A stretch of DNA of 64,000 bases from Planctomycetota bacterium. Its GTDB lineage: Bacteria > Planctomycetota > B15-G4. This document shows, one piece after another, positions 10,653 to 42,494 of this stretch; the first letter of the stretch is position 1; the number at the start of each line of letters is the position of its first letter. The stretch is from NCBI GenBank assembly GCA_038212275.1, contig JBBQUR010000012.1, positions 93,115-157,114 of the forward strand. Direction: 5' to 3'. A program made the position numbers and the translations under genes. The notes below the pieces were generated by a model that was given only the letters and a program-made list of their open reading frames with translations, ran no database searches and was not told where the DNA came from.

Positions 10653-10676
10653 TGACCTCGCGGTCGGGCGGAACGC

Positions 10677-12608
10677 TCAGCGCGGCTGCGCGGAACGCTC
10701 CGCCAGCGTCAGCGCGACGGGCAGGTCCTGCTCGGGGCTTAGGGTCACGTGCGCGCGCCCCTCGAACTGGAGCGCCTCCCACAGGTTGCCCGGAGTCGCC
10801 ACGACGTCGTACTCGCCGGGCGGCAGCGCCAGCATGCGGAAAGCGCCCTCGCCGTCGGTGACGGTCTGCTGCTGGTGCATGGCCGAGGTGACGCCGATGC
10901 GCACGCCGGCACGCGGCCGTCCGTCGGGGCCGATCACGTTGCCGGACAGCGTGCAGCCGAGCGGGAGCGTGAGCGCGCCGACGTCCGTGTCCACCTCGTC
11001 GGTCACACGCACGTCCCGGACATGCAGCGGCGGCGCGTCGGCAGGGCGGGCCGACAGCGTGTAGGTACCCGGCGGCACGTGCTGCAGCAGGAAGCTGCCG
11101 TCGGCGCCGGTGAGCACCATGAGCCCGTGCACGGGCGCCGTCGGAAAGGTGGACTCGAGCGACAGCGAGGGGTCGTAGTCGGCTTCGCGAAGCTCGATGC
11201 GCGTGCCGGCCTGGGCCGGCTGCACGCGGCCCTTCACGCTGCCGCCGCGCAGCAGATACACCTCGAGGCGGGCGACGGGCACGTCGGCGCCGAGGATCAC
11301 GTCCGAGCTGGTCGTGACGGCGAAGCCTTCGGCGTAAATCTCGAAGCGATAGCTGCCGGGGCGCAGACCGTCGAACACGAACGAGCCCGGCGGGCTCGTC
11401 TCGCGGAAGGCTCGGTCCATCGGGCCCGTGCCGAGCAGTCCCGCGCCGGAACGGCCGTCCGGGCGGAGGCGCACGCTGAACTCGGCCGGCGGAGTCGTCG
11501 CGCAGCGCAGCTGGCCATCGACGGCGAGCGCGGGCTGCACGCGCACCGTGTGCTCGTCGCCGTCGGCAGGCAGTTGCAGCGTGTGATCCAGGTACACGAG
11601 CGGCGACTGCACCTCGATGTCGTACAGGCCGCTGGCCATGTCGGACATCGCGAAGCGCCCATCGGCGCCCGTGGTCGTCGTCTGCAGGCGGTAGGTGTTC
11701 TGCGCGCGCTGCCGCTGCGAGACGCGCAACGTGAGCCCGGCCACCGGCTTTTCGAAGCTGTCGAGGACGAGTCCGCGGAGCGACGCGTCCGCCTTTTCGA
11801 GTCGGAAGTCCTGCCGCCAGCGGCCATCGGACGTGCCGAGCACCATCGAGAGCACCAGGGTCACCGGAGCGTAAGCGTCGGCGTCGGCCACGACCTCGTA
11901 CTGGCGCAGCGCGAGGTGCGCGAAGGTGTAGTTGCCCTCCGCGTCCGTGAGCGCCGAGAGCGGAACGGCAGGCGTCGCACCGCGTTGCTCGCGCTGCAGG
12001 TCCGTGAGCTTGACGACGGCGCCCTCGATCGGCTTTCCGGCGTCGTCCGTCACCGTGCCCAGCAGCAGCAGGCCGTCTTCCAGCAGGATGTCTCCGAGGT
12101 CGCGCAGCTCGCCCGCGCCGATGGTGAACGGCTCGCGCAGCACGGGCGCATGGTCGGCGTGCTCGACTTCGATGCCGAGCTCGGAGGTCACCGGCAGCGT
12201 CGCGAACAGAAAGCGGCCGTCCGTGCCCGAGGTGATGGCGGCGCCCTGGTCCTCGCGCGTGCGATAGGGCTGGCCCGGCCCGCTCAGAAAGGCCGTCACG
12301 CTCGCGCCGGGAATCGGCCTGCCGGTGCGGTCGATGACGCGGCCGGCAGCTTGCGCAAGCGCCGGGCCGCGCGCGGAAAGGACCTGAGGCGTCGCCGGGG
12401 CCGCGGCAGAAGGTGCGCGGCTGTCACCGGGCGACTCAGTGGGCCGCGGCAGCACGGCCGGGCTGGCGGGGCCGGGAGCAGGATCGTTCTGGACGGTGCC
12501 CGGCGTGGTGGGAGCCTGATCTCCGTCCGCACGCAGCATCCACCAGGCGCCGCTCAGCAGCGCGAGCACCAGAGTGCAGATGAGCAGAAGTGAGGCGCGC
12601 GAGTTCAC
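10677..12608 (-). CDS. membrane-anchored protein with multiple CarbopepD_reg-like repeats (paralog of 165..3155)
   Basis: N-terminal anchor MNSRASLLLICTLVLALLSGAWW; repeats GRVIDRTGRPIPGASVTAF, GTVTDDAGKPIEGAVVKL, GLVLDSFEKPVAGLTLRV, GNVIGPDGRPRAGVRIGV. Confidence 0.7.
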   Translation of the reverse strand: MNSRASLLLICTLVLALLSGAWWMLRADGDQAPTTPGTVQNDPAPGPASPAVLPRPTESPGDSRAPSAAAPATPQVLSARGPALAQAAGRVIDRTGRPIPGASVTAFLSGPGQPYRTREDQGAAITSGTDGRFLFATLPVTSELGIEVEHADHAPVLREPFTIGAGELRDLGDILLEDGLLLLGTVTDDAGKPIEGAVVKLTDLQREQRGATPAVPLSALTDAEGNYTFAHLALRQYEVVADADAYAPVTLVLSMVLGTSDGRWRQDFRLEKADASLRGLVLDSFEKPVAGLTLRVSQRQRAQNTYRLQTTTTGADGRFAMSDMASGLYDIEVQSPLVYLDHTLQLPADGDEHTVRVQPALAVDGQLRCATTPPAEFSVRLRPDGRSGAGLLGTGPMDRAFRETSPPGSFVFDGLRPGSYRFEIYAEGFAVTTSSDVILGADVPVARLEVYLLRGGSVKGRVQPAQAGTRIELREADYDPSLSLESTFPTAPVHGLMVLTGADGSFLLQHVPPGTYTLSARPADAPPLHVRDVRVTDEVDTDVGALTLPLGCTLSGNVIGPDGRPRAGVRIGVTSAMHQQQTVTDGEGAFRMLALPPGEYDVVATPGNLWEALQFEGRAHVTLSPEQDLPVALTLAERSAQPR

Positions 12609-12617
12609 CGCGCCAGT

Positions 12618-12830
12618 CTAAGCACCCGCGTCAGCCGACGCACGGCGGCGCACGAACGAGTTCCAGGTGTAGTAGGACTCGGCGTGCTCCCGGCTCATCG
12701 GCTTGCCGAGGCACCGGTCGCGCTCGCAGCGGCGGCGACCTTCGTCGTCCACCACGATGACCTGCAGTTCGCGATCGAGGATCGCGCGCCATTCGTCGTA
12801 GGTCATCTCGATCGAGCAGTCATGGCCCAT
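12618..12830 (-). CDS. small hypothetical protein (70 aa, Cys-containing)
   Basis: ORF with strong GC3 bias immediately upstream of the CarbopepD-repeat gene on the same strand; RRCERDRC motif; no recognisable family. Confidence 0.35.
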   Translation of the reverse strand: MGHDCSIEMTYDEWRAILDRELQVIVVDDEGRRRCERDRCLGKPMSREHAESYYTWNSFVRRRASADAGA

Positions 12831-13131
12831 GAGGGTCCTTATCGGTCGCCAGGGGGTTGTTCTTCACCGGTGCGCGGGGCGAAGTGCCTCGCACCGGACG
12901 TGTCGAGAGGCCGGTCGGAGGCCGGCAAGGCGGCAGCTGGCCACGGTGGCGCGGCCTCGGCGCCGCACGGCGGACGGCCCCGGGGAAGCATTTCGGGCCC
13001 CGGATTGCCTGCATGTCCGCATTGACGCCAGTCGATACGGCGACGAGGCCCGGAGGTCACCGCGGCCGATCCGGCCTCGTGGCCAGTCCTTCTCGACAGC
13101 AGTCGCGCCAGTCATCAGGGAGCCGAACTCC

Positions 13132-14721
13132 ATGCGCCTCCAAGCAAACTCGATCCTTCGACTGCCGACATGTCTCCTGGCAGTTTTCCTCCCGGGATGC
13201 CTTGTCGTGGACGCCTCGCCGTCGTTACAGCGGGCTGCGGACGGCGCGCCGGAGGCCAGCGCTGCGCAGGCCATGAACGGCGCGCCACGGACGCGGGCGG
13301 GCGCCGGATCGTCGACCCTGGCCGGGGGCGCGACGCGGGGCGGCAGCACCGCGGCACCCGACGACGAAGCGCTCTCCAAGGGTGATTCCGACGGGCTTCT
13401 CGCGCTGCAGCTCCTCACGGCGGGCGCGCAGGCCCTGGCACAGGGGCACGCCGAGGAAGCCCTGCTGCTGCTGGAAAAGGCGCCCTCGGGCACCGCGGCC
13501 GACGGCGACCGGCATTTCCTCTGCGGCGTCGCGATGCTGCAGCTCGACCGACTCGACGACTCCGTCGCGGAGCTGCGCGCTTCGGCAGCCATTCAGCCGG
13601 ATGACGTGTCGACGCACTGCGTCCTCGGCCGCGTGCTGCGCAGTGTCGGTGACCTGCCCGGCGCCGCCGCCGAGTTGGAGCTGGCCATCGCGCTCGAGCC
13701 GGGCGACGCACACCTTCACACGCTGCTGGGTCATCTGCTGCTCGAGCAGGAGGACTTCGGCGGCGCCTTCGACGCGCTGCGGGCCGCGGTGGAACTCGAT
13801 GCCGGCGAAGTCGACGCGCATCGAGGCCTGGCGCTCATCTTTGCAGCCAGCGGCGATCCGGAGCACGCGGCGCTTGCCTGGCGCCAGGCGCTCGCGCTGG
13901 CGCCCGACGAGGCCGAGCTGCACGCCGGCCTTGCTTCGACGCTGCGCGCGCAGGGGCTCTACGCCGACGCACTTCCCTCCTGTGTGCGCGCCGCCGAACT
14001 TCAGCCGGAGAACTCCGTCTACGTGGCCAACATCGCCTCCACGTTGACGGTACTCGGCCGGTTCGACGAGGCTCGGGAGGCCTTCGAGCGATCGCTGATT
14101 CTCGGACTGCCTGCGGGCGAGCCGAGCGCGCTGGTTCACGCCAACTTCGCCGACCTGCTCGAACGGCTCGGCGATCTCGATGGCGCCGCCGGCGAATACC
14201 TCGCGGCGCTCGCCGAGGAACCGCGTTTGTCCTCCGCCCGCGAGGCGCTGGGCCTGCTGCAGCTCGATCTCGGCGACACCGTCGCCGCCCGGGAGCAACT
14301 GCAGCGCGCTCTGAACACGGGTGGGCTGACCGCCGAGGGCCTCATGCACCTCGCCCGGTTGCAGGAGCAGTGCGGCGACGCGGAGGGCGCGCGGCTTTGT
14401 GCGCGGATTCTCGCCGATGATGACGGCGGCAGCGACGAGGTGGCCTTTCGCCGCGCGCAGCTGATGGTGTTCTCGGACGACCCGGAGATCCGCGACGCCG
14501 CCACGGCCGTCACCATCCTCCGCCAGTTGCTCGACGGCACGCGCGACGCCAACGGCGCCGTGTGGAACCTGCTCGGCGAGGCGCTGGCGCGGGAGGGCGC
14601 CTTCGCCGGTGCGGTCGAGGCCGTCAGCCGTGCGGTGGAACTGGCGGGACCCGACCATCCCGCTGCAGGGCGCTACCGCACGCTCCGCGAGCAGTATCTG
14701 GCCAACCTCGCGGGGCACTGA
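13132..14721 (+). CDS. TPR-repeat lipoprotein
   Basis: Internal ATG (aa102 of ORF 12829..14721) gives MRLQANSILRLPTCLLAVFLPGC signal with lipobox; multiple 34-aa TPR-like units (AxxxLxxAxxLxP...). Confidence 0.7.
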   Translation: MRLQANSILRLPTCLLAVFLPGCLVVDASPSLQRAADGAPEASAAQAMNGAPRTRAGAGSSTLAGGATRGGSTAAPDDEALSKGDSDGLLALQLLTAGAQALAQGHAEEALLLLEKAPSGTAADGDRHFLCGVAMLQLDRLDDSVAELRASAAIQPDDVSTHCVLGRVLRSVGDLPGAAAELELAIALEPGDAHLHTLLGHLLLEQEDFGGAFDALRAAVELDAGEVDAHRGLALIFAASGDPEHAALAWRQALALAPDEAELHAGLASTLRAQGLYADALPSCVRAAELQPENSVYVANIASTLTVLGRFDEAREAFERSLILGLPAGEPSALVHANFADLLERLGDLDGAAGEYLAALAEEPRLSSAREALGLLQLDLGDTVAAREQLQRALNTGGLTAEGLMHLARLQEQCGDAEGARLCARILADDDGGSDEVAFRRAQLMVFSDDPEIRDAATAVTILRQLLDGTRDANGAVWNLLGEALAREGAFAGAVEAVSRAVELAGPDHPAAGRYRTLREQYLANLAGH

Positions 14722-14772
14722 GCACGGCGCGGACCTGCGGCGCGGCTCGCGCGCTGTCGCTACGATGCGAGC

Positions 14773-14937
14773 ATGTCCACGCCGCGCCTGATCCAGCTTG
14801 TCGGTCTGCTCATCGTCACCGCGGTGATGATCGTGTCGTACCTCGTGTCGAACATGCTGCTGCAGTTCGGCGGGCTTGCTGCGGGCGCGCTGGTCTTCCT
14901 CATCGGGCGTGGCATGGAGAGTCGCGGCGGCAAGTGA
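14773..14937 (+). CDS. small two-helix membrane protein (54 aa)
   Basis: ATG..TGA ORF below the 60-aa track cut-off: MSTPRLIQLVGLLIVTAVMIVSYLVSNMLLQFGGLAAGALVFLIGRGMESRGGK; two hydrophobic helices, high GC3. Confidence 0.4.
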   Translation: MSTPRLIQLVGLLIVTAVMIVSYLVSNMLLQFGGLAAGALVFLIGRGMESRGGK

Positions 14938-14976
14938 GTGGCGCCTGGCCGCATCGCCTCGTCGCCGCACGGCGCT

Positions 14977-15858
14977 TCAGGCGCGCGGGTGGCTGCGGCC
15001 GTAGACATCCTTGAGCCGGCCGATCGAAACGTGCGTGTAGATCTGCGTCGTCGACAGGCTCTCGTGGCCGAGCAGTTCCTGCACCGTGCGCAGGTCTGCG
15101 CCGCGGTCGAGCAGGTGTGTCGCGAAGGAGTGGCGCAGCGTGTGGGGGCTGGTGTCGCCCGGCAAGCCGGCGGCCAGCGCGTGCTGCTTCACGAGACGCG
15201 CGATGCTGCGCGTCGTGAGCCTGCCTCCGTCGCGCGCGTTGACGAACAGCGCGTGCTCGCCCGCGCGCCGGCGGGCCGCGAGCAGGCGCGAGCGCGTCGG
15301 CAGCCATGCCTCCAGCGCGGCGCGCGCGGGGGCGCCCAGCAGTCCCAGCCGCTCCTTGCGACCCTTGCCGAACAGGCGAAGGCTGCCGCCTGGAAGGTCC
15401 ATCGCGTCGAGGTCGAGCCGCGAACATTCCTCCACGCGCATGCCGGTCGAGTACAGCGCCTCGAGGATGGCTCGGTCGCGCACGGCCGTGGGCTCGTCGC
15501 CCGCGGGCGCGGCGAGCAGCGCGACGAGGGCGGATTCGTCGAGCACGCGCGGCAGCGGCGCGGCGCGGCGCGGAGCGCGCAGCGGCACGGTCGGGTCGGA
15601 GCGCGCACGTCCGGTGCTCGCGAGCCAGCCGAAGAAGCCGCGCAGCGCGGCCTGCTTGCGGGCCAGCGTCGCACGGCTGGGGGACGGCAGGCTTGCCAGC
15701 CATTCACGCAGCAGCAGTGTGTCGATGCTGCGGGCGTCGGTGGTGCCGCGCTCGGCCGCGAAGGCAAGCAGCGCGGACACGTCGCTGCGATAGGCTCGCA
15801 GCGTGTGTGCGCTGGCCTGCTGCGTCGTCTGCAAGCCATCGAGCCAGGCGGTGAGCAT
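14977..15858 (-). CDS. tyrosine recombinase XerC/XerD family
   Basis: HTLRHSFATHLLDRGADLRTVQELLGHESLSTTQIYTHV...SHPRA canonical Xer C-terminus; start M76 (MLTAWLDGL) of ORF 14977..16083. Confidence 0.9.
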   Translation of the reverse strand: MLTAWLDGLQTTQQASAHTLRAYRSDVSALLAFAAERGTTDARSIDTLLLREWLASLPSPSRATLARKQAALRGFFGWLASTGRARSDPTVPLRAPRRAAPLPRVLDESALVALLAAPAGDEPTAVRDRAILEALYSTGMRVEECSRLDLDAMDLPGGSLRLFGKGRKERLGLLGAPARAALEAWLPTRSRLLAARRRAGEHALFVNARDGGRLTTRSIARLVKQHALAAGLPGDTSPHTLRHSFATHLLDRGADLRTVQELLGHESLSTTQIYTHVSIGRLKDVYGRSHPRA

Positions 15859-16012
15859 GGGCCGAGGATTCCCTCCGCAGCCGCCCGGCTCAAGTCCCAA
15901 GGCCTCGGGAGCTAGAATCGGCCGCGTGCCCGACCCCGCTCCTCCCGACCCGATCGCCCTGGAACCGGCCGCTGAGTCGTGGTGCGTTTCCGCCGGTTCG
16001 GCCCGGGCCAGC

Positions 16013-17386
16013 ATGGCGGAGCTGGCCGCGGCGCTGCCCGCCGAGCGCTGGCCCTTGCTCCTCGACAGCGGGCCGCGCCGCACCGATCTCGCACAATGGC
16101 ACCTGCTGCTCTTCGATCCGGTCGCGCGTTTTCAGCACCGCGCAGTTCCCGGCGAGAACGGCTTGCAGGCATTGCAGGTGGCACTGGAGCGTTGCTGGCC
16201 GGGTGTGCGCCGCGCCGCCGGAGCTGCGGCGGGCCGTGCAGGCACGGCGGCCCTCGGCAGCGTTCCGGCCTTCACGGGCGGCGCGGCAGGCTGGTTCGGC
16301 TACGACCTTGGTCGAGAACTGGAGCGGGTGCCGGCGCGCTGCCCTCCCGACGCCGACGTCCCGGATCTCTGCGTCGGTCTCTACCCGTTCGCGCTGGCCG
16401 AAGACGTGGGCAGCGGCCGCCGGCTGATCGTGGGGCGCGGCAGCAGCGAGGAGGCGCATCGCTTCCTTGCGGAGGTGACGGCGCTCGTTGCCGCCGCGAC
16501 GCCATTGGTGCCGCTTTTGCCGGCTCCGGCCGCCAGCGGCCTGTCGCCCGAGACCAGCCTGGACCGGCTCGCCTACATGGCCGCCGTGGAGGCTGCGCGC
16601 GAGCACATCCTCGACGGCGACATTTACCAGGTGAACCTGTGCCAGCGGCTGCAGTTCCCATTCGATGGAGACTCCGCGGCGCTGCAACTCGCGTGGCGGA
16701 ACCGGTTTCCGGCGCCGTTCGGCGCGCTCATGAGGATTCCGGGTCTGGCGATCGTGTCGAGTTCGCCGGAGTTGTTCCTGCGCAAGCGGGGCAGTCGCGT
16801 CGAGAGCAGGCCGATCAAGGGCACGGCCCCGCGCTCCGCCGATCCGCGAGTCGACGCCGGGCTGCGGGAGTCGCTGGAGGCCTCCGCGAAGGAGCGCGCC
16901 GAACTGGCCATGATCGTCGATATCGTGCGCAACGACCTCGGTCGCACGGCGGAGATCGGAAGCGTCGCGGTGGAGGGCGGTTTCCGCACGGATTCGTGGA
17001 GCGACGTCCATCATCGCGTCGCGACGGTGAGCGCGCGCGTGCCGGACGAGGTCACGGCGCTGGAGGTGATGGCGACCGCGTTTCCGCCGGCCTCGGTGAC
17101 CGGCGCGCCGAAGCTGGCCGCGCAGGCCGTCATCGAGGAACTCGAGCCGCGACGCCGGCACGTGTACACGGGGGCGATTGGCTGGATCGGTGCCGATGGC
17201 GACATGGACCTCTCCGTCGCCATCCGGATCGCCACGCTCACGGAGGGGCGCCTGCTGGCCAGCTTTGGCGGGGGCATCACGCTGGCATCCGACCCCGCCG
17301 CGGAGTACGAGGAGACACTTCACAAGGCGCGCGCGCTGTGCGATGTGCTCGGCGCGCGCGGCCCATTCACCGGGACCTCCGCATGA
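16013..17386 (+). CDS. pabB: aminodeoxychorismate synthase component I (chorismate-binding enzyme)
   Basis: SRVESRPIKGTAPR ... IVDIVRNDLGR ... YTGAIGWIGADGDMDLSVAIRIATL ... GGGITLASDPAAEYEETLHKA; stop overlaps pabC start (ATGA); alternative upstream ATG at 15857. Confidence 0.85.
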   Translation: MAELAAALPAERWPLLLDSGPRRTDLAQWHLLLFDPVARFQHRAVPGENGLQALQVALERCWPGVRRAAGAAAGRAGTAALGSVPAFTGGAAGWFGYDLGRELERVPARCPPDADVPDLCVGLYPFALAEDVGSGRRLIVGRGSSEEAHRFLAEVTALVAAATPLVPLLPAPAASGLSPETSLDRLAYMAAVEAAREHILDGDIYQVNLCQRLQFPFDGDSAALQLAWRNRFPAPFGALMRIPGLAIVSSSPELFLRKRGSRVESRPIKGTAPRSADPRVDAGLRESLEASAKERAELAMIVDIVRNDLGRTAEIGSVAVEGGFRTDSWSDVHHRVATVSARVPDEVTALEVMATAFPPASVTGAPKLAAQAVIEELEPRRRHVYTGAIGWIGADGDMDLSVAIRIATLTEGRLLASFGGGITLASDPAAEYEETLHKARALCDVLGARGPFTGTSA

Positions 17387-18252
17387 TTTTCGCTCTGGGC
17401 TGGATCGACGGCGACATCAGGCCTGTCGAAGAGCTGGCCGTGTCGGCGCTCGATCGGACGGTGCTGTACGGCCTGGGTGCCTTCGAGACCGTGCGCCTGC
17501 ACGGCGGGCACCCGTTTCTCTTCGACCGGCACCTGGCGCGGTTGCGCAGTTCGCTCGCCGCGGTGGGGCTTCCGGCACCGCCGGCGCTGGAGCTGCTTCC
17601 GCGCGGCGTGGTCGAGCTGGCAGCACGCGCCGACGCGCCGAGTGCGCTGTGCCGCGTGACCGTGACGGCCGGTGCCAGCGTCTCCGAAGCCCACATCCGC
17701 GGCACCGGGATGAGAGTCCTCGTGCAGTTGCGCTCCGTGCCGCCGGTGGCCATCGGTCCGGTGCGCGTGGGAGTGGCGCCGTTCGCGCACGACAGCCGCT
17801 CGCCGCTCGCCGGCGTGAAGTCCACCAGCTACCTGAGCCACTACCTGCAGCGCGAGGCGGCGGAGGCGGACGGCCGCCTCGACGACCTCATGCTGGACAC
17901 GGACGGAAACGTGACGGAAGGCACGGTGTCGAATGCCTTCGGCGTGCGGCGCGGTGAACTCATCACGTCGCCGGTCAGCACGAAGATCCTGCCGGGCGTG
18001 ACGCGCGGCGCAGTGCTGGAGCTGGCGAGGGAGCTTCAGCTGACCATTCACGAGAGCCCGCTGCGCCTGGCCGAACTGGCCGAGCTGGACGAGTTCTTCC
18101 TGACCGGCGCAGGCAAGTGCCTGGTGGGGGTCGACGAGCTCGCCGGGCACCGCCTGCCCGTCGAACGGCCGGTGACGGCGGGCTTGAGGACCGCCCTCAT
18201 CCGGCGCATCGCCACCTTCTGTGGGGTCGCCCCCGAGAGCATTCACATCTGA
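17383..18252 (+). CDS. pabC: aminodeoxychorismate lyase (class IV PLP aminotransferase fold)
   Basis: 289-aa class-IV fold protein (LYGLGAFETVRLHGGHPFLFDRHLARL...) translationally coupled to pabB. Confidence 0.72.
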   Translation: MIFALGWIDGDIRPVEELAVSALDRTVLYGLGAFETVRLHGGHPFLFDRHLARLRSSLAAVGLPAPPALELLPRGVVELAARADAPSALCRVTVTAGASVSEAHIRGTGMRVLVQLRSVPPVAIGPVRVGVAPFAHDSRSPLAGVKSTSYLSHYLQREAAEADGRLDDLMLDTDGNVTEGTVSNAFGVRRGELITSPVSTKILPGVTRGAVLELARELQLTIHESPLRLAELAELDEFFLTGAGKCLVGVDELAGHRLPVERPVTAGLRTALIRRIATFCGVAPESIHI

Positions 18253-18341
18253 GTGCCGGTTCGGTGCGCCACTCCGGCGGGGATGCGTTGCGTCTTCCCG
18301 CAGACCGGACTTACGATGCTCGGGATTCCGAAGAGATCGGC

Positions 18342-19265
18342 ATGACCATGCGAAGATCAACCCTGCACCGTCATCGCGCGGGCCTGCTGTTCCTGGCGCT
18401 CGTGCTGCCAGGTGCGCCTGCCTTTGCGCAGGACGACGGTCGCCCCCCCGAAGGCACGGACTCGGCCCAGTCCGCCGAGGCGGCTGCCCAGGCTGCCGAT
18501 GCCGCTGCCATGGGTGCCGTCGAGATCATGGACGCGGCACTGAACGACCGCGACCCGGCAAAGATCAAGCCGGTGTTCACCACGCTCGACGAGCAGTGGG
18601 CGAACCTGTCGCCGAAGACCATCAAGCGCGTGAACAAGTCGATCAGCGGGATGTTCGCGAAGCTCAAGCCGCGTGAATCGCGCGACATCGACACGCTGGG
18701 CGAGGACGCGAAGAACGGCCGCTTCGACCCGGAAGAAGGCAGCCGGAGACTTGCCACCGACACGCAGAAGCAGGACGTGCTCGACTGCTATCACTCGGCG
18801 ATCGGCCTGCTGTACGACAAGCCGGACGGCCCCGCTGTGCTGCTGCCAGTTCTCAAGTTGCAGCACGTGAAGGTCTGGCCCGACGTGCAGGTGCTGGTGC
18901 TCGAAGGCCTCGGCTATCGCGGAGAGGGGGCGCTCGAGAAGGAATTCGAAGGCTATCTGCGCCACGAGAATCCGGCGGTCGCGTCCGCCGCCGCGAGCGC
19001 GATGGGACATCTGCAGGACCAGCCGATGGATGTTCGTCGCCGCGCCGTGACCGCGCTGGTGGATGCGTTCAGCGCCGCACAGAAGGCTTCCGACAAGGAG
19101 GCCTCGAAGGTCGGCGAGGACGACGAGCGCCCCGCGCGTCGCTATTACTCCAGCGTGATGCTCGCGTTCCGGGAAGCGCTCACATCCCTGACGCGCCAGT
19201 CGTTCGACAAGCCCCCCGAATGGCGCGAGTGGCTCGACGCTCACGGCAAGGATGCCTCCTGGTGA
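18342..19265 (+). CDS. secreted protein with HEAT/PBS-lyase-like repeats
   Basis: MTMRRSTLHRHRAGLLFLALVLPGAPAFA signal peptide (aa76 of ORF 18117..19265); alpha-helical repeat-like ENPAVASAAASAMG segments. Confidence 0.55.
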   Translation: MTMRRSTLHRHRAGLLFLALVLPGAPAFAQDDGRPPEGTDSAQSAEAAAQAADAAAMGAVEIMDAALNDRDPAKIKPVFTTLDEQWANLSPKTIKRVNKSISGMFAKLKPRESRDIDTLGEDAKNGRFDPEEGSRRLATDTQKQDVLDCYHSAIGLLYDKPDGPAVLLPVLKLQHVKVWPDVQVLVLEGLGYRGEGALEKEFEGYLRHENPAVASAAASAMGHLQDQPMDVRRRAVTALVDAFSAAQKASDKEASKVGEDDERPARRYYSSVMLAFREALTSLTRQSFDKPPEWREWLDAHGKDASW

Positions 19266-19861
19266 GTGTCTGGGGTCTGATCCGCACCAGGCTGATCAAC
19301 CCGCTCGTCCGGGCGCAGGGCACGCCCAAATCGATTGCGCGCGGAACCGCGCTCGGCACGTGGCTCACGCTCACGCCGACCGTCGGCATCCAGATGACCA
19401 TCGCCGCGTTCATCGGCATTCCGTGGGGAGCGAACATGCCGATCGCGATCGCCATCATCTGGCTCTCCAACCCCTTCACGATCATTCCGCTCTACTACAG
19501 CTACTACTGGTTCGGGACAGTGCTCCTTCCCGGCCCGGCGCGCTCCTACGCCGACGTGACGGACGCGGTGAGAGTGCGCATCGAGGCCGTCACGCAGCAC
19601 GGCGAGGGCGTCCTGACGGCATTGCGGACGCTGGGGGCGGACATCGGCACCCCGATGGTCGTGGGCTCTCTGGTCATCGCCACGGGGATTGCCGTTCCGG
19701 CGTACTTCATCACGCTGCACTGGGCGCAACGGCGGCAGGCGCGAAGGCAGCGGGAACACGAGGCGGCGGGCGCCGTCCAATCGCCTGTCGTCCCGCCGAC
19801 GGGTTTCGGTGGGCCACTTCCGCCCGCCGTGCCCGGCACCCCGAAGGCCAGCAGCCCGTGA
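19262..19861 (+). CDS. DUF2062-family membrane protein
   Basis: GTG at 19262 overlaps upstream TGA (GTGA); RGTALGTWLTLTPTVGIQMTIAAFIGIPWGANMPIAIAIIWLSNPFTIIPLYY matches DUF2062 topology/motifs. Confidence 0.65.
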   Translation: MSVWGLIRTRLINPLVRAQGTPKSIARGTALGTWLTLTPTVGIQMTIAAFIGIPWGANMPIAIAIIWLSNPFTIIPLYYSYYWFGTVLLPGPARSYADVTDAVRVRIEAVTQHGEGVLTALRTLGADIGTPMVVGSLVIATGIAVPAYFITLHWAQRRQARRQREHEAAGAVQSPVVPPTGFGGPLPPAVPGTPKASSP

Positions 19862-21453
19862 CCGACAGCGACGACCTCCTCACCCTGCAAGTCGACGGCG
19901 ACGACGGCGACGACGGCCGCCAGGACGCAGGCGCACCGAGCGCGCGTCGCGTGGAGGCCAGCGATACCTCTGGCGCCACGGGAGGCCGGTCGACAGCGCG
20001 AAGCCCGGTCGGACTGAGCGGTTCCGAGCTGGTGACGCTGTCCTCGGAGGCGCGCCTTGCGACGGCGTTGCTGCTGCAGGCACAGGCGCTGGAAGGCATG
20101 CGGCAGGCGCATTCCGACCTGCTCTCCAGACTGGATGCAGGCGGCGGCGCGCGGCGGTCCGAGGAACTGCACTCGGCTCTGCGCGAAGTGCAGCAGGTGC
20201 AGCAGCAGACGCTCGGACAGCTCGCGCGGGCGCGCCATCGTGCAAGCCAACGCACGGCGATGTTCGTCGCGTTGCTCGTGCTCGGGGCCCTGGCTGCGGG
20301 GTGGCTCGTGCAATCCTCGCGTGCCGATGTGAGCCGCGCCGTTGCCGACGCCCGGGCCGAACTGGTTGGAAAAGCGGCTGCAGACCGGGCCGATCTCGAG
20401 ACTTCCCTCAAGGCAGCCATGACCGCGACCGCAAGCCAGCAGGACGCGATGCTTGAAGAGCTCGTTGCGGGCCTGCGCGGCAACGAGGCGCAGCTGCGTG
20501 ATCGTCTGGATCGCACGAGTACCGAGCGCGACGAGGCACGCGCGCAGTTGGCCGGCAAGCATCAGGAGGTCGCCGGGCTTCAGTCCGAACTAGTCGCTGA
20601 AACACAGGGCCGCGACTCGATGGAACTGGAGCTGCACAAGACGCGCGACGAACGCAATCGACAGATCGGCGAGGCGTCACGGCTGCGCGAGCAGCTCATC
20701 GATCGGGACCGGCAGCTCGAAGAGTTGACCAACACGATCAGCAAGGTGCGAACGGACATGGAGGCCCGGGCAGCAGCCCCGGACGGCCGGATCGTGAACT
20801 CGGCCATTCACCCGGAATCGTTCGCGGGGCGGTTGACGACGGCGCTCCGAGGCAGCGGCGCCAAGGAAGCGACGGTCCTCGAAGCAGGTCCGGTGGTCGA
20901 CGGCGCGCTCACCGGAGTGCTCGTGATGCTTGGAGGCTCCGACAGCGTCTCAGGGCGCGTGGTGCGCGCAGAGACGGCCCGGCTGCTTGTGGAGCGCGGC
21001 ATGGCGCTGCTGCGGCTCGAGTCCGTGCAGGAGCCGGACCGCGAGACTCCCACCGCGAGCCTGGACGTCGCATTGCCCGAACTTGATCCGGCGGCATGGC
21101 GAGCGCTCGGCCTGGAGGCGCCGGGCGACTTCGTGCCGATTTCGAAGGTGTCCGAAGCGCTTGGAGCGCTGTTGTCGCCACAGGGATACGTCGTCGTCCG
21201 GCTCGAGAGCTTCGATGGTCTCACGCTGGGTGGACTTGAACTGCGCCAGGAGGACACCCGAGGGACCTGCTTGCGCACCTTGATGGCAGCGACAGGAGAG
21301 GTCCGACCGGTCGGGCCGGAACTGGCACTGGAAGGCGGCTCGATTCTCGTGGGCGACGATGCCCGCCCGTTTTTTCAGGGGCAATGCCGAGTGCCGCTGC
21401 CCGGTGCCGACTATGGCGCCTGGCTGGCGGCCACGAGGAGCGACTCGAAGTGA
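19858..21453 (+). CDS. membrane-anchored coiled-coil protein with C-terminal globular domain
   Basis: GTG at 19858 overlaps DUF2062 TGA (GTGA); N-terminal DGDDGDDG, one TM helix MFVALLVLGALAAGWLV, ~200 aa heptad-rich region (LQSELVAETQGRDSMELELHKTRDERNRQIGEASRLREQLIDRDRQLEELTNTISKVRTDMEA). Confidence 0.55.
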   Translation: MTDSDDLLTLQVDGDDGDDGRQDAGAPSARRVEASDTSGATGGRSTARSPVGLSGSELVTLSSEARLATALLLQAQALEGMRQAHSDLLSRLDAGGGARRSEELHSALREVQQVQQQTLGQLARARHRASQRTAMFVALLVLGALAAGWLVQSSRADVSRAVADARAELVGKAAADRADLETSLKAAMTATASQQDAMLEELVAGLRGNEAQLRDRLDRTSTERDEARAQLAGKHQEVAGLQSELVAETQGRDSMELELHKTRDERNRQIGEASRLREQLIDRDRQLEELTNTISKVRTDMEARAAAPDGRIVNSAIHPESFAGRLTTALRGSGAKEATVLEAGPVVDGALTGVLVMLGGSDSVSGRVVRAETARLLVERGMALLRLESVQEPDRETPTASLDVALPELDPAAWRALGLEAPGDFVPISKVSEALGALLSPQGYVVVRLESFDGLTLGGLELRQEDTRGTCLRTLMAATGEVRPVGPELALEGGSILVGDDARPFFQGQCRVPLPGADYGAWLAATRSDSK

Positions 21454-35305: not shown

Positions 35306-35602
35306 TCAGTTCTCCTGATGAGTTTTCCGGCGCCGGTGTTCACCCTCGGCCTCATCGATGATGCGGATGAACTCGGGAATGGCCTCGCGACGTTCGAGCA
35401 GCCGCGCCAGTTCGTCGATTCGCGTCGCCGGAATCCCGGCGCGCCAGACAGGGGACACCACGTGCAGCATCGAGGCCGTGACGAGGTTCATGGGAGACAC
35501 CGTTTCAAGCAGCATCATGGCCGGGACCGCAAGCCTCCTCGCGACGATCGAACGGGCGGCCTCCTCCATGAGGGTCCTCTCCCGTTCCGAAAACTGACTC
35601 AT
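35306..35602 (-). CDS. small soluble protein (98 aa) (cluster gene G)
   Basis: MSQFSERERTLMEEAARSIVARRL...; ATG overlaps stop of gene H (ATGA); coding-like GC3. Confidence 0.45.
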   Translation of the reverse strand: MSQFSERERTLMEEAARSIVARRLAVPAMMLLETVSPMNLVTASMLHVVSPVWRAGIPATRIDELARLLERREAIPEFIRIIDEAEGEHRRRKTHQEN

Positions 35603-36057
35603 GCGACCCGTCGGTTCCGGATGTAAGTCGACACCTGCGCGGCGAGTTCGCTCCGTTGGTCGGTGCGCAGAAAGAGGCCCCGATCCCTGACCCAGCGCGA
35701 GGGCCGGTGCAGCGGCGACAGGTGCACGCCGTGGCGTTCCTGCGTGACGGCCCGAAGCTCGGTCCAGGCCAGCCGGCGCGGAGCCTGCAGAGGGCCATGC
35801 TCCATGGCACCCATGGCATCGAGCTCGTAGGTGCGCGGCAGGAACCAGGCTCGCAGGCTGCCGAACAGCAGCAGGGCGGCCAGGCTGGCGCTGCCGACCG
35901 AACCCGACACCGAGTAGACCAGGACGGAGGCCAGTCCCAAGGTTGCCAGGATCGCGAGCGTGCGCAGCGGCTGTGCTGCAGCCGGATGCACGGTCCAGCG
36001 CAGTGCGGCCTCTGCCCCGGTGGCGGGCTCGGTGGTGGTCTCGAAGGGTGCCAGCAT
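35599..36057 (-). CDS. membrane protein with TM hairpin and PH-like domain (cluster gene H, first gene)
   Basis: RTLAILATLGLASVLVYSVSGSVGSASLAALLLFGSL then globular C-terminus; 60-bp divergent spacer to GT2 gene. Confidence 0.5.
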   Translation of the reverse strand: MLAPFETTTEPATGAEAALRWTVHPAAAQPLRTLAILATLGLASVLVYSVSGSVGSASLAALLLFGSLRAWFLPRTYELDAMGAMEHGPLQAPRRLAWTELRAVTQERHGVHLSPLHRPSRWVRDRGLFLRTDQRSELAAQVSTYIRNRRVA

Positions 36058-36891: not shown

Positions 36892-37179
36892 CTCGCGGCT
36901 CGAAACGTAGAGCGCAGGCGACCGTTCCGGAACGCCTCGTCGGGGGCGAGAGTCAGCGAGACTTCGTGCCGCCGGGCCAACGGCAGGATTCCGCGCCTTC
37001 GGTCCGTACCGGATTTGCCCTCTCCGGAATCCGGGCCTCTCCCCCGCAGCCTCATTCGCGGGGTACACTTCCCGGCTCACTTGACCTCATCAAGAGATCT
37101 GGTCGATAGACGCTGCCGACGCCCTACCCGATTCATGTCGCTGCGCCAGACCGGGTCCTTACCTCTGGAGTTTCCTTCC

Positions 37180-38706
37180 ATGAAGTCCGTTTCGCTCGCA
37201 CTCGGTTCCCTTGCGTTGGCGCTTGCTGCGCAATCGACGCCTGCACAACTCATTTCCCAGACCGCTGAGTTCGGTGCGTTCTACACAGACGACGCGTCGG
37301 GCCTCAATGTCGGGGTCAACCTCGATCTGGCCAGCGGTCCGATGTACTTCCTGCTCGCATCGTTCGATGGCTTTCAGTCGCTGCCGGCCCTGCTCGGTCC
37401 CTATGCGCTGACTCCGGATGGCAGCGCGCTGTTTCTTGCCAATGTCGATCCCGCGATCGCGGCTCTGCTGCCCGAGCAGTTCAAGATCGACTTCCGGCCG
37501 CTTTACGCCGGCGGGAGCGGCGTCACCACCACACAGGCCGCTTCGATCATCCTGAATGACGACGGTTGCGAGGCACTCAACTTCAACTTCAAGGCCGGCG
37601 GAGCTCCGACGACCGCCGGTGAAGTCGTGAACACGCAGTGGGCCCCGATCGGCCTGCTCATCTCCGGCGAGAGCCAGCTCATTACGCAGCCGAACAAGGT
37701 CATCGTGTTCGACACGGCCAATCCGACCGGCGGGGACGACGACCTCATGACCCCGGGCCCCGGTCCGGGCAACACGGTCGCGCTCGGCAACATCCTGATC
37801 CTGGCCGAGAACGACGTGGATGCGAACAACGACGGCATCGTGGACGACCCCGATGACGCGTTCAACGGCGGCCTGATGCACTTCAACTTCGACCAGCCGC
37901 AGACGATGTGCTCCGTGACGTTCGTGGACGTCGACGACGTGGATCCGGGCCAGGGCATCACCCGTTGCCGCTTCTACGCGGACAACGCCGGCACGATCTT
38001 CCTCGGCTCGATCATCTGCCCGCCCGGCCCGGACAACAACGTGAAGACGCTCTACTTCAACGTCGAGAACGTGCGCCGCATGGACGTGAAGTTCGGTGGA
38101 TCAGGCGGGCTCGGGCTCGTCAGCTACTGCCCGACGTGCATCAACTTCGACGAGACCAGCAAGGACATCCCGCTGAACTACCCGGCCGGCACGATCATCA
38201 CCAACCAGTTCGCCAACCTGGGCTTCAACGTGTCCGCGGTGAACAAGAACGGCGGCTACATGCCGGCCGTGATCTTCGACTCGGCCAACCCGACCGGTGG
38301 TGACACCGATCTGGCGACGCCCGGTTACGGCTTCGGCAACAACGTCGCCGAGGGCAAGATCCTGATCATCCAGGAGCACAACGTCGACGCGAACAACGAC
38401 GGGTTGATCGACGATCCGGACGACAACGCCGACGGTGGCAACATGTTCTTCGACTTCGACTTCGACGTGCACGTCGACAACCTGACCTTCATCGACGTGG
38501 ACGGCCTCGAGATGTCGTGGGTGCAGGGCATCGATTCGAACAACCAGATCGTGGGCACCGTCAACCTCGCGAACCTGGGTGACAACTCGCGTCAGACCAT
38601 CAACATCGACCTCGACAACGTGCGCCGGTTCAAGGTGCACTTCGGCGGGTCCGGTTCGGTGGCCGGCTTCTGCTTCTGCTCGAACCCGCCGAACGACAAC
38701 CAGTAA
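37180..38706 (+). CDS. secreted protein with internally duplicated ~150-aa Asp-rich domain
   Basis: Signal peptide MKSVSLALGSLALALAAQ; two copies of FDxANPTGGDxDL...ILIxxENDVDANNDGxxDDPDD...FxFD...VRRxxVxFGGSG; lower GC than neighbours. Confidence 0.65.
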   Translation: MKSVSLALGSLALALAAQSTPAQLISQTAEFGAFYTDDASGLNVGVNLDLASGPMYFLLASFDGFQSLPALLGPYALTPDGSALFLANVDPAIAALLPEQFKIDFRPLYAGGSGVTTTQAASIILNDDGCEALNFNFKAGGAPTTAGEVVNTQWAPIGLLISGESQLITQPNKVIVFDTANPTGGDDDLMTPGPGPGNTVALGNILILAENDVDANNDGIVDDPDDAFNGGLMHFNFDQPQTMCSVTFVDVDDVDPGQGITRCRFYADNAGTIFLGSIICPPGPDNNVKTLYFNVENVRRMDVKFGGSGGLGLVSYCPTCINFDETSKDIPLNYPAGTIITNQFANLGFNVSAVNKNGGYMPAVIFDSANPTGGDTDLATPGYGFGNNVAEGKILIIQEHNVDANNDGLIDDPDDNADGGNMFFDFDFDVHVDNLTFIDVDGLEMSWVQGIDSNNQIVGTVNLANLGDNSRQTINIDLDNVRRFKVHFGGSGSVAGFCFCSNPPNDNQ

Positions 38707-38810: not shown

Positions 38811-40178
38811 TCAGGGCGCCGGCAGGCAGAACATGGTGGCGATGAGCAGGCCGGCCACGGCAAGTCCCCACACGACGGCCCTTCGTGCGCCGTGCTGCGG
38901 CGTGACCCTGTGCCGCAGCCGGTCCTCCAGCAATGCCAAGGCGTGTCCCGCGAAGGGCAGCATGAAGGGCACCATGGTGTGCCGGTAGCGCGCAGACGAC
39001 ACGGTCAGGGCGAGGGTGGCCGCCAGCATCAGCAGCGCGAGGAGCGCGACCCTCGTCAACATGCTCCTCGGGGCGCACGCCAGTCCCGCTGCACCGAGCG
39101 CGAACAACAGCACCGCACACGCGCTGCACAGCAACTGCACGCGTCTTCCCCAGCCCGCTGGCAGGACCCACGCCTGGCGGGAGAGCGTGAGGTGCGACGA
39201 CGCATCAGGTGAAAACCCGTCGAAGGTCAGCGCGATCCAGATGGGAAGCGCATCCTCGGGACCGACCGCCATGCGCAGCCGGGCCCAGGCTCGCTCCGCA
39301 GTCAGTCCCGGGTACTCGAACAGCGCCCTGCGGAACACCTCGTGCGCATGTTCCATGCGTCCTGCCACATCGAGGTCGATGTACTCCTTGAAGAAGTGTC
39401 GCGACGATTCGCCGGGAGGCGTGTTGTCGAGCCCCATCGAAAGGTGACCGAAGGTTCCCGAGAGGATCGAGACGCCGTAGCGCTGCTGCGTCGAGATGAG
39501 CCACGGGAGAGTGACGAGCAGCGCCACGACACCGGTCGCCATCGCGAGACCCAGCCTCGGCAGGAAGCGGGGCGTCGGCCGCAACAGCAGCGCCAGCACG
39601 AAGACGCCGGTCATCGGTACGAGCAGCTCCTTGGTGAGGATGCCCAGCCCGAGGATCGCGCCGAGGACCAGCGCGCGTGAGGCGACGGACGTGCCGCGCC
39701 GGTCAAGCGCGCGGTCCAGGCCGTCGAGCGCCAGCAGGGCAGCCGCGACGACGAGCACGGCCACCGTCTCGGCCATGATCACGGCCGTGGAGAACAGGAC
39801 GGCCTGCGGCAACAGCGCGTAGATCCAGCCCGCCGCCAGCGCCGCGCGCTCTCCGAAATGGCGGCGCGTGAGCTGCATCAGCAGCGCGAGTGCGACCAGG
39901 TCCATGCCGATCTGGATCAGATACGCGCCTGGCCAGGCAGCCGGCGGCGTCACCGTCGTGTCGAGGCCTGGCGCCAGCAGCATGCGGAACAGCGGCGGGC
40001 GGACGCCGAGCGCCAGTGCGGAGAAGTACCCGCTCGATCGGAACTCCTGGGCAAGGAACACGTAGCCGAGCGCATCGCCGGATGGGGCGATCTGGCTGCC
40101 CAGCGGCAGGCACGCGAGGCGCACGACGAGAGCGACGATGAGCGGCCAGATCAGAGTCTGGCGCGCCCTGCCTGTCAT
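38811..40178 (-). CDS. PMT-family (ArnT-like, GT39/GT83-type) membrane glycosyltransferase
   Basis: About 11 hydrophobic segments, N-terminal LIVALVVRLACLPLGSQIAPSGDALGY loop typical of PMT_2 family; ATG overlaps ygiQ stop (ATGA). Confidence 0.65.
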   Translation of the reverse strand: MTGRARQTLIWPLIVALVVRLACLPLGSQIAPSGDALGYVFLAQEFRSSGYFSALALGVRPPLFRMLLAPGLDTTVTPPAAWPGAYLIQIGMDLVALALLMQLTRRHFGERAALAAGWIYALLPQAVLFSTAVIMAETVAVLVVAAALLALDGLDRALDRRGTSVASRALVLGAILGLGILTKELLVPMTGVFVLALLLRPTPRFLPRLGLAMATGVVALLVTLPWLISTQQRYGVSILSGTFGHLSMGLDNTPPGESSRHFFKEYIDLDVAGRMEHAHEVFRRALFEYPGLTAERAWARLRMAVGPEDALPIWIALTFDGFSPDASSHLTLSRQAWVLPAGWGRRVQLLCSACAVLLFALGAAGLACAPRSMLTRVALLALLMLAATLALTVSSARYRHTMVPFMLPFAGHALALLEDRLRHRVTPQHGARRAVVWGLAVAGLLIATMFCLPAP

Positions 40179-42187
40179 GTGCCGTTGCCGCCGCGCGGCC
40201 GCCGGCCAGGACTGGAGCCGGTCGCGGGCCCAGGCGGCTTGCGGGTCGTGTTCCGGACAGGCCGCTTGCGCGGATCGAGCAAGCCGCGCTCGTGCACGAA
40301 ACGGCCGAACTCCTCGACGCGACGACCGGCCCGAGCGCCCAGCGCCGCAGCGGGAGGATGGGCCTTGATCAGGCATTGTGGCCCGTCGCCGATGAGATCC
40401 TCCCTGCCAGCCGCTTTCAGGGCGGCCTCGACGGTCAACCAGTTCTCCGGCTTGAAGAACTGCATGAGCGCACGCTGCATGCGGCGGTCCGTGAGCTTGC
40501 GACGCACGGGCAGTTCCTCGAGCGTGTGTGGATCCATGCCCGTGTGCCACGCCGACGTGGCCAGGTCCATCGGCGCCGGGATGAAGTCCTGAACCTGCTG
40601 AGGCCGGTAACCGGCCTGCTTGAGGAACACCGCCAGCTCGATCATGTCGGAAAGGTCGCTCCCCGGATGGCTGGCGATGAAGTACGGGACGAGGTATTGC
40701 TCCTTTCCGACGGCACGGCTCGCTTCGTCGAAGCGCTCGGCAAAGTCCGTGAAGCTGCGGGTCGGCGGTTTCTTCATCGCGGCCAGCACGCGTTCGCTCA
40801 CGTGCTCCGGCGCCACCTTGAGGTGCCCGCTCACGTGGTGAGCGGCCAGCTCGCGCAGATACTCGGGACTCAGGGTGGCGAGATCCATGCGCACGCCCGA
40901 GGCGACGAACACCCGCTTGACGCCGGGGCGCGCGCGGGCCGCACGCATGAGGCCGATGAGCGGCCCGTGATCCGTTCCGAGATGTCGGCAGATGCCCGGA
41001 AAGACGCACGACAGGCGCCGACAGCTCTTCTCGACGTCAGGCTGCGTGCAGCGCATCTTGTACATGTTGGCGGTGGGGCCGCCGATGTCGCTGATGTTGC
41101 CCTTGAACTCCGGGTCCGCGGCGGCTGCGTCGATCTCGCGCAACACCGAGGCCTCGCTGCGCGACTGGATCACGCGGCCCTGGTGCGTGGTGATCGAGCA
41201 GAAGGAGCAGCCGGCAAAGCAGCCGCGCATGATCGTCACGCTGTCGCGGATCATGCGCTCGGCCGGCACCGCGAGCTTGTAGGACGGATGTCGCCGCCGC
41301 GTGAACGGCCGGTCGTACACCGCGTCCATCTCGTCCTCGGAAAGCGGCATGGCGGGCGGGTTCTGCACGACGAGCCGGTCGCCGTGCGCCTGCACCAGTC
41401 GGCGTGCGTTGAACGGGTTGGACTCGCGGTGAATGGCGCGCGTGGCGAGGCTGAATGCACGCTTGTCGGCAGTCACCTCCTCGAAGGATGGCAGGCGCAC
41501 TGTCGCGGCGTCGGGCCCGTCCTGTGCGGCGCGCGCAGGATCGGGCGTGCCGGTGGAGGACATCACGGGTGCGAAGGCCGGAAGCGTCTGCCGCGCACCG
41601 AGGAGATAGGCAGTGCCCCGGATGTCCGTCAGCGCGCGGACGTCTTCGCCGGCGTCCAGGCGCCGGGCGATGTCGACGACGGCGCGTTCGCCCATGCCGA
41701 AGACGAGCAGATCGCACTTGGACGAGACGAGCATCGACGGGCGCACCGTGTCGGACCAGTAGTCGTAGTGCGCAAGCCTGCGCAGCGAGGCCTCGACGCC
41801 ACCGGCGATGACCGGCACGCCGGGCGCGGCCTCGCGGCAACGCTGGCTGTAGACGTTGGTGGCGCGGTCAGGCCGTTGACCCGACACGCCGCCCGGCGTG
41901 TACGCATCGTCACTGCGCGGCAGCTTGTTCGCCGTGTAGTGGTTGATCATCGAGTCCATGTTCCCGGCGGAGACGCCGTAGAACAGGCGCGGGATACCCA
42001 GCGACGAGAACGCCTTGCTGTCCTTCCAGGCGGGCTGCGCGAGGATGGCGACGCGGAAGCCCGCGGCCTCCAGCGTGCGACCGATGAGCGCCGCAGCGAA
42101 CGACGGGTGGTCGACGTATGCGTCGCCCGACACGATGACGATGTCGGGACGGTCCCAGCCCAGCGCGGCCACGTCGGCAGCCGTCAT
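40175..42187 (-). CDS. ygiQ: YgiQ-family radical SAM protein (UPF0313)
   Basis: LPMTAADVAALGWDRPDIVIVSGDAYVDHPSFAAALIGRTLEAAGFRVAILAQPAW matches YgiQ N-domain; CxxxCxxC radical SAM motif (RGCFAGCSFCS); start set at M79 of ORF (uncertain). Confidence 0.85.
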   Translation of the reverse strand: MTAADVAALGWDRPDIVIVSGDAYVDHPSFAAALIGRTLEAAGFRVAILAQPAWKDSKAFSSLGIPRLFYGVSAGNMDSMINHYTANKLPRSDDAYTPGGVSGQRPDRATNVYSQRCREAAPGVPVIAGGVEASLRRLAHYDYWSDTVRPSMLVSSKCDLLVFGMGERAVVDIARRLDAGEDVRALTDIRGTAYLLGARQTLPAFAPVMSSTGTPDPARAAQDGPDAATVRLPSFEEVTADKRAFSLATRAIHRESNPFNARRLVQAHGDRLVVQNPPAMPLSEDEMDAVYDRPFTRRRHPSYKLAVPAERMIRDSVTIMRGCFAGCSFCSITTHQGRVIQSRSEASVLREIDAAAADPEFKGNISDIGGPTANMYKMRCTQPDVEKSCRRLSCVFPGICRHLGTDHGPLIGLMRAARARPGVKRVFVASGVRMDLATLSPEYLRELAAHHVSGHLKVAPEHVSERVLAAMKKPPTRSFTDFAERFDEASRAVGKEQYLVPYFIASHPGSDLSDMIELAVFLKQAGYRPQQVQDFIPAPMDLATSAWHTGMDPHTLEELPVRRKLTDRRMQRALMQFFKPENWLTVEAALKAAGREDLIGDGPQCLIKAHPPAAALGARAGRRVEEFGRFVHERGLLDPRKRPVRNTTRKPPGPATGSSPGRRPRGGNGT

Positions 42188-42359
42188 GGGGAGGGGCACG
42201 AGCGAAGGTCCGCCCGCACGCTTTGCAGCCTCACGCCCGGCGCGCGTGCCGATCGCCTTGTGCCGCGCGGGATGCGCCTGTCCCGCGGCCTGGGCGCCCG
42301 GCCGGCGATCCTCGTGGCCAGCGCCCGGGGATCCGCCGCTCGGGCTGCGCCTGGTCACG

Positions 42360-42494
42360 CTACTTGGCGAGTTCCCGTCGGCCTGCGGCCCGGCGGCGAC
42401 GGACGACCTTGCGCCCGCCACGCGTCTTCATGCGCGTGCGAAAACCGACCTTGCGGCGGCGCTTGGTGTTGCTGTTGCGCACCTTCGTGTGCAT
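42360..42494 (-). CDS. rpmH: 50S ribosomal protein L34
   Basis: MHTKVRNSNTKRRRKVGFRTRMKTRGGRKVVRRRRAAGRRELAK, 44 aa, canonical L34 pattern (GFRxRM). Confidence 0.85.
   Translation of the reverse strand: MHTKVRNSNTKRRRKVGFRTRMKTRGGRKVVRRRRAAGRRELAK

Follow-up and report, generated by a model that had tools for sequence, protein, structure and literature searches.

The 64,000-nucleotide stretch of a Planctomycetota bacterium contig analysed here (the window) carries, at positions 37180..38706 of the + strand, a complete gene for an exported acidic protein of 508 aa, which is the subject of this work. A single clean + strand open reading frame (ORF) occupies the region, and from 37180 to 38706, stop codon included, it contains no internal stops. 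The longest reading of this ORF opens at a TTG at 37015; the ATG at 37180 was taken as the true start because a typical signal peptide follows it directly and the homologues begin at the equivalent point. The signal peptide, which agrees with an earlier description of the protein as secreted, was read from the sequence as approximately aa 1-23 (MKSVSLALGSLALALAAQSTPAQ; 37180..37248, + strand), with a predicted cleavage site. It contains no lipobox cysteine, AlphaFold2 modelled its aa 3-18 as a helix with a low predicted local distance difference test score (pLDDT), and the homologues have hydrophobic N-termini of an equivalent kind. The mature part of the protein is strongly acidic, with a calculated pI of ~4.05. 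An identical protein, P0001, is present without a name in the public collection.

A reading of this DNA made from the letters alone (the sequence-only reading) had proposed that the protein contains a tandemly duplicated domain, and a BLASTP self-alignment recovered the internal repeat, aligning aa 131-330 with aa 331-508 at 42% identity over 174 columns (E 4e-42). In agreement with this, a hidden Markov model (HMM) of the domain, built from the family, found two full-length copies in the ORF (242 and 236 bits) and no further copies elsewhere in the window. Repeat A, a jelly-roll domain of an uncurated family as judged by the self-alignment, its 242-bit score and the AlphaFold2 model, comprises aa 128-318 (37561..38133, + strand), and repeat B, the second copy, comprises aa 319-503 (38134..38688, + strand); the unit is ~185-190 aa, longer than the ~150 aa per copy first estimated. 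All four sequence blocks quoted in that reading were present in both copies. The first is FDTANPTGGDDDL in repeat A (aa 177-189; 37708..37746, + strand) and FDSANPTGGDTDL in repeat B (aa 366-378; 38275..38313, + strand), both located by columns that are invariant in alignments A1 and A2, and its repeat A form covers some of the acidic core that is invariant in the family (F, P, G, D, D, L). The Asp-rich block reads ILILAENDVDANNDGIVDDPDD in copy A (aa 205-226) and ILIIQEHNVDANNDGLIDDPDD in copy B (aa 394-415), the third block corresponds to VRRMDVKFGGSG and VRRFKVHFGGSG in the two copies, and the Cys pairs are CPTC (317, 320) and FCFC (498, 500). At the DNA level no repeat was found at the expected offset, and among 50 family members copy A was more similar to its counterparts in other proteins (47%) than to copy B of the same protein (42%); the duplication is therefore ancient.

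The AlphaFold2 model of the whole protein, computed from a 50-sequence alignment, had a pLDDT of 90.8 and a predicted template-modelling score (pTM) of 0.86, and it is all-beta with three domains (aa 24-127, 128-318 and 319-503); repeat B modelled alone reached a pLDDT of 93.4. The N-terminal domain, at ~aa 24-127 (37249..37560, + strand), is a predicted family-specific, Ig/FN3-like beta-sandwich with strands modelled over aa 30-124 at a pLDDT >86; it is weakly conserved in alignment A1 and had no match in Pfam. The Foldseek matches concurred with a jelly-roll fold, at template-modelling (TM) scores of 0.46 or lower, and the top structural neighbours were non-catalytic binding modules. As modelled, the fold class of the repeated domain is secure, namely a beta-jelly-roll of the galactose-binding-domain-like type. 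None of the solved structures is closely related to the domain, and a profile search of PDB sequences returned nothing above noise.

This fold class is the one found in CAZy beta-sandwich carbohydrate-binding modules (CBMs) and galactose-binding-domain-like modules (CBM4, CBM6, CBM22, CBM29, CBM32, CBM47/F-lectin and discoidin). Unlike the CAZy CBMs, the window domain carries the motifs FDxxNPTGGDxDL, LIIxE, PDD and GSG, which are specific to its family, and searches of 50 family members and of distant relatives gave no Pfam CBM match to the domain. Also among the closest known systems are the CBMs and lectin-like domains of RTX adhesins, represented by a putative CBM of Aeromonas salmonicida (PDB 9q5u) and the CBM of A. 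hydrophila AhLap, although at only ~10% identity and with no relationship at the sequence level. The window protein also differs from the RTX adhesins in being Sec-exported and small (508 aa) and in having neither RTX repeats nor a split domain. For a related Aeromonas RTX adhesin, the CBM is known to bind fucosylated glycans and to cause cell aggregation (PMC12077191); no literature was found on 9Q5U itself, or on the LEVG family considered below.

The most conserved part of the domain is a set of acidic and turn residues. In alignment A2, which comprises 34 diverse domains, the invariant positions (repeat B numbering) were G20, F49, P54, G56, D58, D60, L61, E82, P96, D97, D98, D122 and S174, which map to FDxxxPTGGDxDL, the Glu of LIIxE, PDD, the Asp in an xDxD strand and the Ser of GSG. 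The conserved site thus described is mostly made of carboxylates and Gly/Pro turns and is invariant across phyla, and the loop motifs of the domain are conserved far more than its strands.

Each repeat additionally carries an EF-hand/DxDxDG-like loop, DANNDGIVDDPD at D214-D225 in repeat A (37819..37854, + strand) and DANNDGLIDDPD at D403-D414 in repeat B (38386..38421, + strand). Both matched the 12-residue pattern D-x-[DN]-x-[DN]-G-x-[ILV]-[DNST]-x-x-[DE], as D214-A-N-N-D-G-I-V-D-D-P-D225 and as D403...D414, at homologous positions of the two repeats, while only 0.9% of shuffled sequences had the pattern even once. The loop was present in 62 of 128 domain instances and lacking in about half of the domain's relatives, and comparison of the long-loop form (...AENDVDANNDGLVDDPDDE...) with the short-loop form (...SEDGDSSDPDD...) identifies it as an insertion of 8-9 residues. 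On these alignments the DxDxDG loop is an accessory element, grafted beside the invariant PDD and optional in the family rather than domain-defining. The earlier calcium-loop interpretation was reasonable at the level of the motif, since the pattern occurs in both repeats, but its comparison with thrombospondin type 3 repeats did not hold, as TSP_3 had no Pfam match at E <= 1 to 5 and the motif occurs once per 185-aa beta-sandwich. The sequence D-x-N-x-D-G-x-V-D-x-x-D, found once per window repeat, is shared with EF-hand/DxDxDG calcium-binding loops, including those of thrombospondin type 3 repeats and dockerins. In contrast to these, the window loop is inserted in a beta-sandwich, with neither a helix-loop-helix nor a Cys-rich TSP3 array around it, and the Pfam TSP_3, EF-hand and dockerin models had no match in the window protein.

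Relatives of the full-length window protein numbered 372 in a collection clustered at 90%, nearly all of them of ~500 aa, unnamed or 'hypothetical' and from Planctomycetota, including Saltatorellus ferox Poly30, with at least four paralogs, and Engelhardtia mirabilis. Paralogs often stand in tandem pairs (loci L001, L006, L007, L008 and L009); the window holds one copy only. The window protein is an already public, unnamed member of a planctomycete paralog family, and its fold and probable action are of a well-known kind. The domain itself reaches considerably further: when one genome per GTDB species was scanned with degenerate patterns, the domain was confirmed in at least 477 stretches, from Planctomycetota, Bacteroidota, Rhodobacteraceae, Gammaproteobacteria, Cyanobacteria, Chloroflexota, Myxococcota, Bdellovibrionota, Acidobacteriota, bacteria of the candidate phyla radiation (CPR) and DPANN archaea. 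Each domain-bearing ORF of the scanned loci has one to three copies, and the proteins range from ~220 to ~5,000 aa. Searched exhaustively with HMMER, 1.84 billion cluster representatives gave 5,455 matches at E <= 1e-3, of which 4,208 were at E <= 1e-10 and 1,780 at E <= 1e-30.

All architectures with the domain are extracellular, that is, exported or surface proteins only. At one end, single-domain relatives of 220-240 aa in total consist of a signal peptide, one domain and a PEP-CTERM anchor; at the other, the domain is combined with RTX nonapeptide repeats, type IX secretion system C-terminal sorting domains, SprB, HYR, SdrD_B, DUF7507 and cadherin/Big repeats, and the giant adhesin-like proteins that bear it are exported by type I or type IX secretion. 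In two metagenomic proteins, P0172 (aa 22-109) and P0122 (aa 2-41), the domain is immediately preceded by a CBM60, a module that binds xylan in a calcium-dependent manner. The long-loop (DxDxDG) version was also observed in surface proteins from metagenome-assembled genomes (MAGs) of DPANN archaea (L036 and L054, Woesearchaeota/Nanoarchaeia) and of CPR bacteria (L053 and L070, Paceibacterota/Saccharibacteria), a distribution which implies that the domain has spread across domains of life among episymbiont-type organisms. Full-length 500-aa members were further found on short contigs of a 'Paracoccaceae bacterium' MAG, JBLIHL01 (L005 and L008), the latter with a tandem pair and a sigma-54 activator between the two genes; this arrangement is otherwise typical of Saltatorellus-clade Planctomycetota, and the contigs may be mis-binned.

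None of the family models searched describes the domain. No Pfam (2025) model covers it in the window protein, in 50 family members or in distant single domains, and NCBIfam (June 2026) has no model for it and gave sub-threshold matches only. The LEVG PEP-CTERM model NF038121 scored 29.6 bits against a cut-off of 100, over profile positions 136-208 and the C-terminal half of the domain; with a score this far under the cut-off, and with no PEP-CTERM tail in the window protein, membership of that family was rejected. The PepA flocculation protein model NF033554 reached 47 bits against a cut-off of 80, in some relatives only, with the tail alone giving part of the score, and assignment of the single-domain PEP-CTERM relatives to PepA, LEVG, XDP1 or similar families was likewise rejected, all scores being under the cut-offs. 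The anchor is what PEP-CTERM surface proteins such as LEVG and PepA share with these single-domain relatives, whereas the window protein has no PEP-CTERM sorting signal, ending in ...FCFCSNPPNDNQ and having no PF07589 match. PepA-type proteins act in cell aggregation (PMC9850573). As far as these model collections extend, the domain appears to form a large family with no model and no characterised member in Pfam (2025) or NCBIfam (June 2026).

Taken together, these observations incline us, with modest confidence, to regard the window protein as a bivalent, calcium-dependent ligand-binding protein, probably binding glycans, that belongs to a paralog-rich planctomycete family. The protein is Sec-exported, acidic and all-beta, with an Ig-like N-terminal domain followed by two ~185-aa jelly-roll modules. 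Each module would bind one or more calcium ions through the invariant carboxylates that every copy carries (those of GGDxDL, the Glu of LIIxE, PDD and the Asp of xDxD), to which the planctomycete version adds the inserted EF-hand-like DxNxDGxxDxxD loop. The loops organised by calcium would then bind a ligand, most plausibly a glycan on the cell surface or in the extracellular matrix, and a tandem pair of modules would confer bivalency and with it avidity or cross-linking, which could be useful for adhesion or for linking a matrix. For calcium binding, ligand binding and the nature of the ligand we infer from the behaviour of the fold class and from calcium-dependent CBMs, namely CBM36, CBM60 and the RTX-adhesin CBMs. 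In CBM36 and CBM60, calcium is directly involved in ligand binding, and we propose these two as functional analogues of the domain.

Several points weigh against a calcium-dependent glycan binder. A conserved aromatic platform, which many CBMs possess, was not identified in the domain, and no surface anchor could be recognised in the window protein, which may therefore reside in the periplasm, at the surface or in the medium. Proteins with this fold are also used to bind vitamin B12 (DUF4465) and to make protein-protein contacts (IFT25 and the APC10/DOC domain). A broader proposal, to which we give somewhat less than even weight, is that the repeat unit represents a large, unnamed family of modules that spans phyla and binds ligands in a calcium-dependent way, amounting to a new CBM/lectin family. 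It would be used on surface proteins by bacteria and by DPANN/CPR organisms via at least four export routes (Sec alone, exosortase/PEP-CTERM, type I and type IX secretion), and the Saltatorellus/Engelhardtia clade would have expanded a bivalent, fast-evolving version of it for cell-cell or cell-matrix adhesion. As a recognition signature for the module we put forward FDxxNPTGGDxDL...LIIxE...PDD...GSG. Should the domain prove to bind glycans with the help of calcium, a single curated model of it would supply the annotation for a conserved segment of thousands of surface proteins now listed as 'hypothetical', among them many giant adhesins of marine, soil and candidate-phyla organisms, and would offer a way into how the unusual Saltatorellus-clade planctomycetes attach or aggregate.

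The acidic clusters could instead be structural calcium sites, as in the extender domains of RTX adhesins, and the domain a calcium-stiffened spacer, itself without a ligand, that lengthens surface proteins or makes them rigid. Its frequent position among extender-type repeats (SdrD_B, cadherin, DUF7507 and Big) in giant proteins is compatible with such a role, which we nevertheless consider unlikely: the domain is also the sole globular domain of the 220-240-aa PEP-CTERM proteins, it is present in one to three copies per giant protein rather than in long arrays, and its loops are better conserved than its strands, suggesting a functional site over a spacer. The invariance of Asp, Glu and Ser from bacteria to DPANN archaea could also reflect catalysis by a small enzyme of the jelly-roll fold, such as a glycan lyase or hydrolase that depends on calcium, given that jelly-roll folds host glycoside hydrolase and polysaccharide lyase families and that CBM60, which neighbours the domain in other proteins, usually accompanies enzymes. 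However, no characterised enzyme family, a match to which would have contradicted the sequence-only reading, was hit in Pfam, NCBIfam or PDB sequences, the alignment has no invariant His, Tyr, Arg or Lys, one of which lyases usually need, and the top structural neighbours are non-catalytic, making an enzyme improbable. Even less probable is a binder of a small molecule or cofactor resembling the DUF4465/BtuJ vitamin B12-binding proteins, which are among the closest structural neighbours and are defined by the tyrosine of a GTPAYF/NTPAY HI-loop and a pocket lined with aromatic residues (10.1101/2025.08.21.671476). The domain has no counterpart of that HI-loop or pocket, its conserved columns being acidic and Gly/Pro, no DUF4465 match was obtained in Pfam even at E <= 5, and no btu or cobalamin genes lie nearby. 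Membership of DUF4465 itself was rejected on the lack of a Pfam match, of a GTPAYF HI-loop motif in the C-terminal half and of an aromatic pocket.

The genes around the target had led to the idea that it might be a glycosylated surface protein, modified by O-mannosylation or otherwise by adjacent PMT_2-type (GT-C) and GT2 transferases. A GT2 gene (Pfam PF00535) is indeed found 289 bp upstream; it shares the strand of the target and is co-directional rather than divergent as previously described, and a PMT_2-domain (GT-C) gene (38811-40178, - strand) lies downstream in the convergent orientation reported for it. The adjacency of GT2 and target was seen again in L001 and in L011, a MAG contig of Planctomycetota isolate OFTM9. 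In L011, however, it is part of ordinary synteny: positions 1600-21450 are collinear with window positions 28600-51700 over ~20 kb, with a shared order of an unnamed ORF, a MutL-family gene, a 152-aa ORF, GT2, target, YgiQ and further genes. L011 lacks the PMT_2 gene, and its target is followed directly by YgiQ; in an otherwise collinear locus this implies an insertion or a deletion between related genomes. In the window, the PMT_2 start ATG (40178-40176) and the stop codon of the YgiQ-type radical SAM gene (40175-42421, - strand) overlap in an ATGA arrangement, suggesting co-transcription and translational coupling of the two genes, and because of this overlap the PMT_2 gene is assigned to the YgiQ transcription unit. 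Other relatives adjoin unrelated genes, P0004 (74% identical) lying between a gamma-glutamyltranspeptidase and an FG-GAP protein and P0010 beside a sulfatase, and phmmer searches of 80 related loci with the window GT2 and PMT_2 proteins found GT2 in L001 and L011 only and a single weak PMT_2-like match, at variance with the suggested co-occurrence with PMT-family transferases. S+T is 10-13% per domain, and the window protein has no Ser/Thr/Pro-rich linker. On all these findings we regard the glycoprotein idea as very unlikely; the presence of a glycosyltransferase gene on either side is not enough to define a glycoprotein locus.

A recent foreign origin of the gene is more doubtful still. It would account for the GC content of 0.625, which, as had been pointed out, is low against flanks of ~0.69 (0.675-0.70 in five neighbouring genes). 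However, codon usage is not visibly atypical as had been claimed, since the GC content at third codon positions (GC3) is 0.882, at or above that of the five neighbours (0.82-0.87). The deficit is confined to codon positions 1 and 2 (0.59 and 0.41), and the low GC content is explained by an amino-acid composition rich in Asn, Asp, Phe and Ile (Gly 11%, Asp 10%, Asn 9.3% and Phe 6.5%). Moreover, the collinear L011 locus has the gene at the corresponding position, and its family is native to, and paralog-rich in, the source planctomycete clade. We therefore ruled out foreign origin on GC3 and synteny with L011; a local drop in GC content at a normal GC3 is due to protein composition and not to foreign origin. 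The housekeeping neighbours in the two collinear loci are 65-78% identical, whereas the target proteins are only 39% identical, suggesting that between the window and L011 the target is either a fast-evolving exposed protein or has been replaced by a paralog at the same site.

Neighbour clustering over 20 planctomycete loci gave as the only recurrent partner a sigma-54-dependent enhancer-binding protein, present in four loci (L006 11769-13208, + strand; L008 6184-7794, + strand; L013 3709-5178, + strand; L007 5365-7086, - strand). These are NtrC-type AAA+ proteins with the motifs GETGTGKE and GAFTGA, and in the four loci, including that of Saltatorellus ferox, the gene stands beside or between tandem paralogs. 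This placement recalls the PEP-CTERM flocculation genes, which are under RpoN-dependent control (PMC9850573). Upstream of the window gene (36892-37180) no sigma-54 -24/-12 promoter was found, and matches to this element across the window were no commoner than in shuffles.

Two further observations concern small genes without a Pfam family. A 212-aa gene, not seen upstream of the window gene, overlaps the start of P0010 by 4 nt in two independent assemblies (L003 5134-5772 and L004 2042-2680) and may be a co-translated partner of P0010. In the window, the 152-aa ORF (35599-36057, - strand) is divergent to the GT2 gene and has a counterpart in L011 with 46% identity over 149 aa. Since this conserved ORF overlaps the 5' part of the long GT2 ORF, the sequence suggests that the true start of GT2 is near 36100 and not at 35656.

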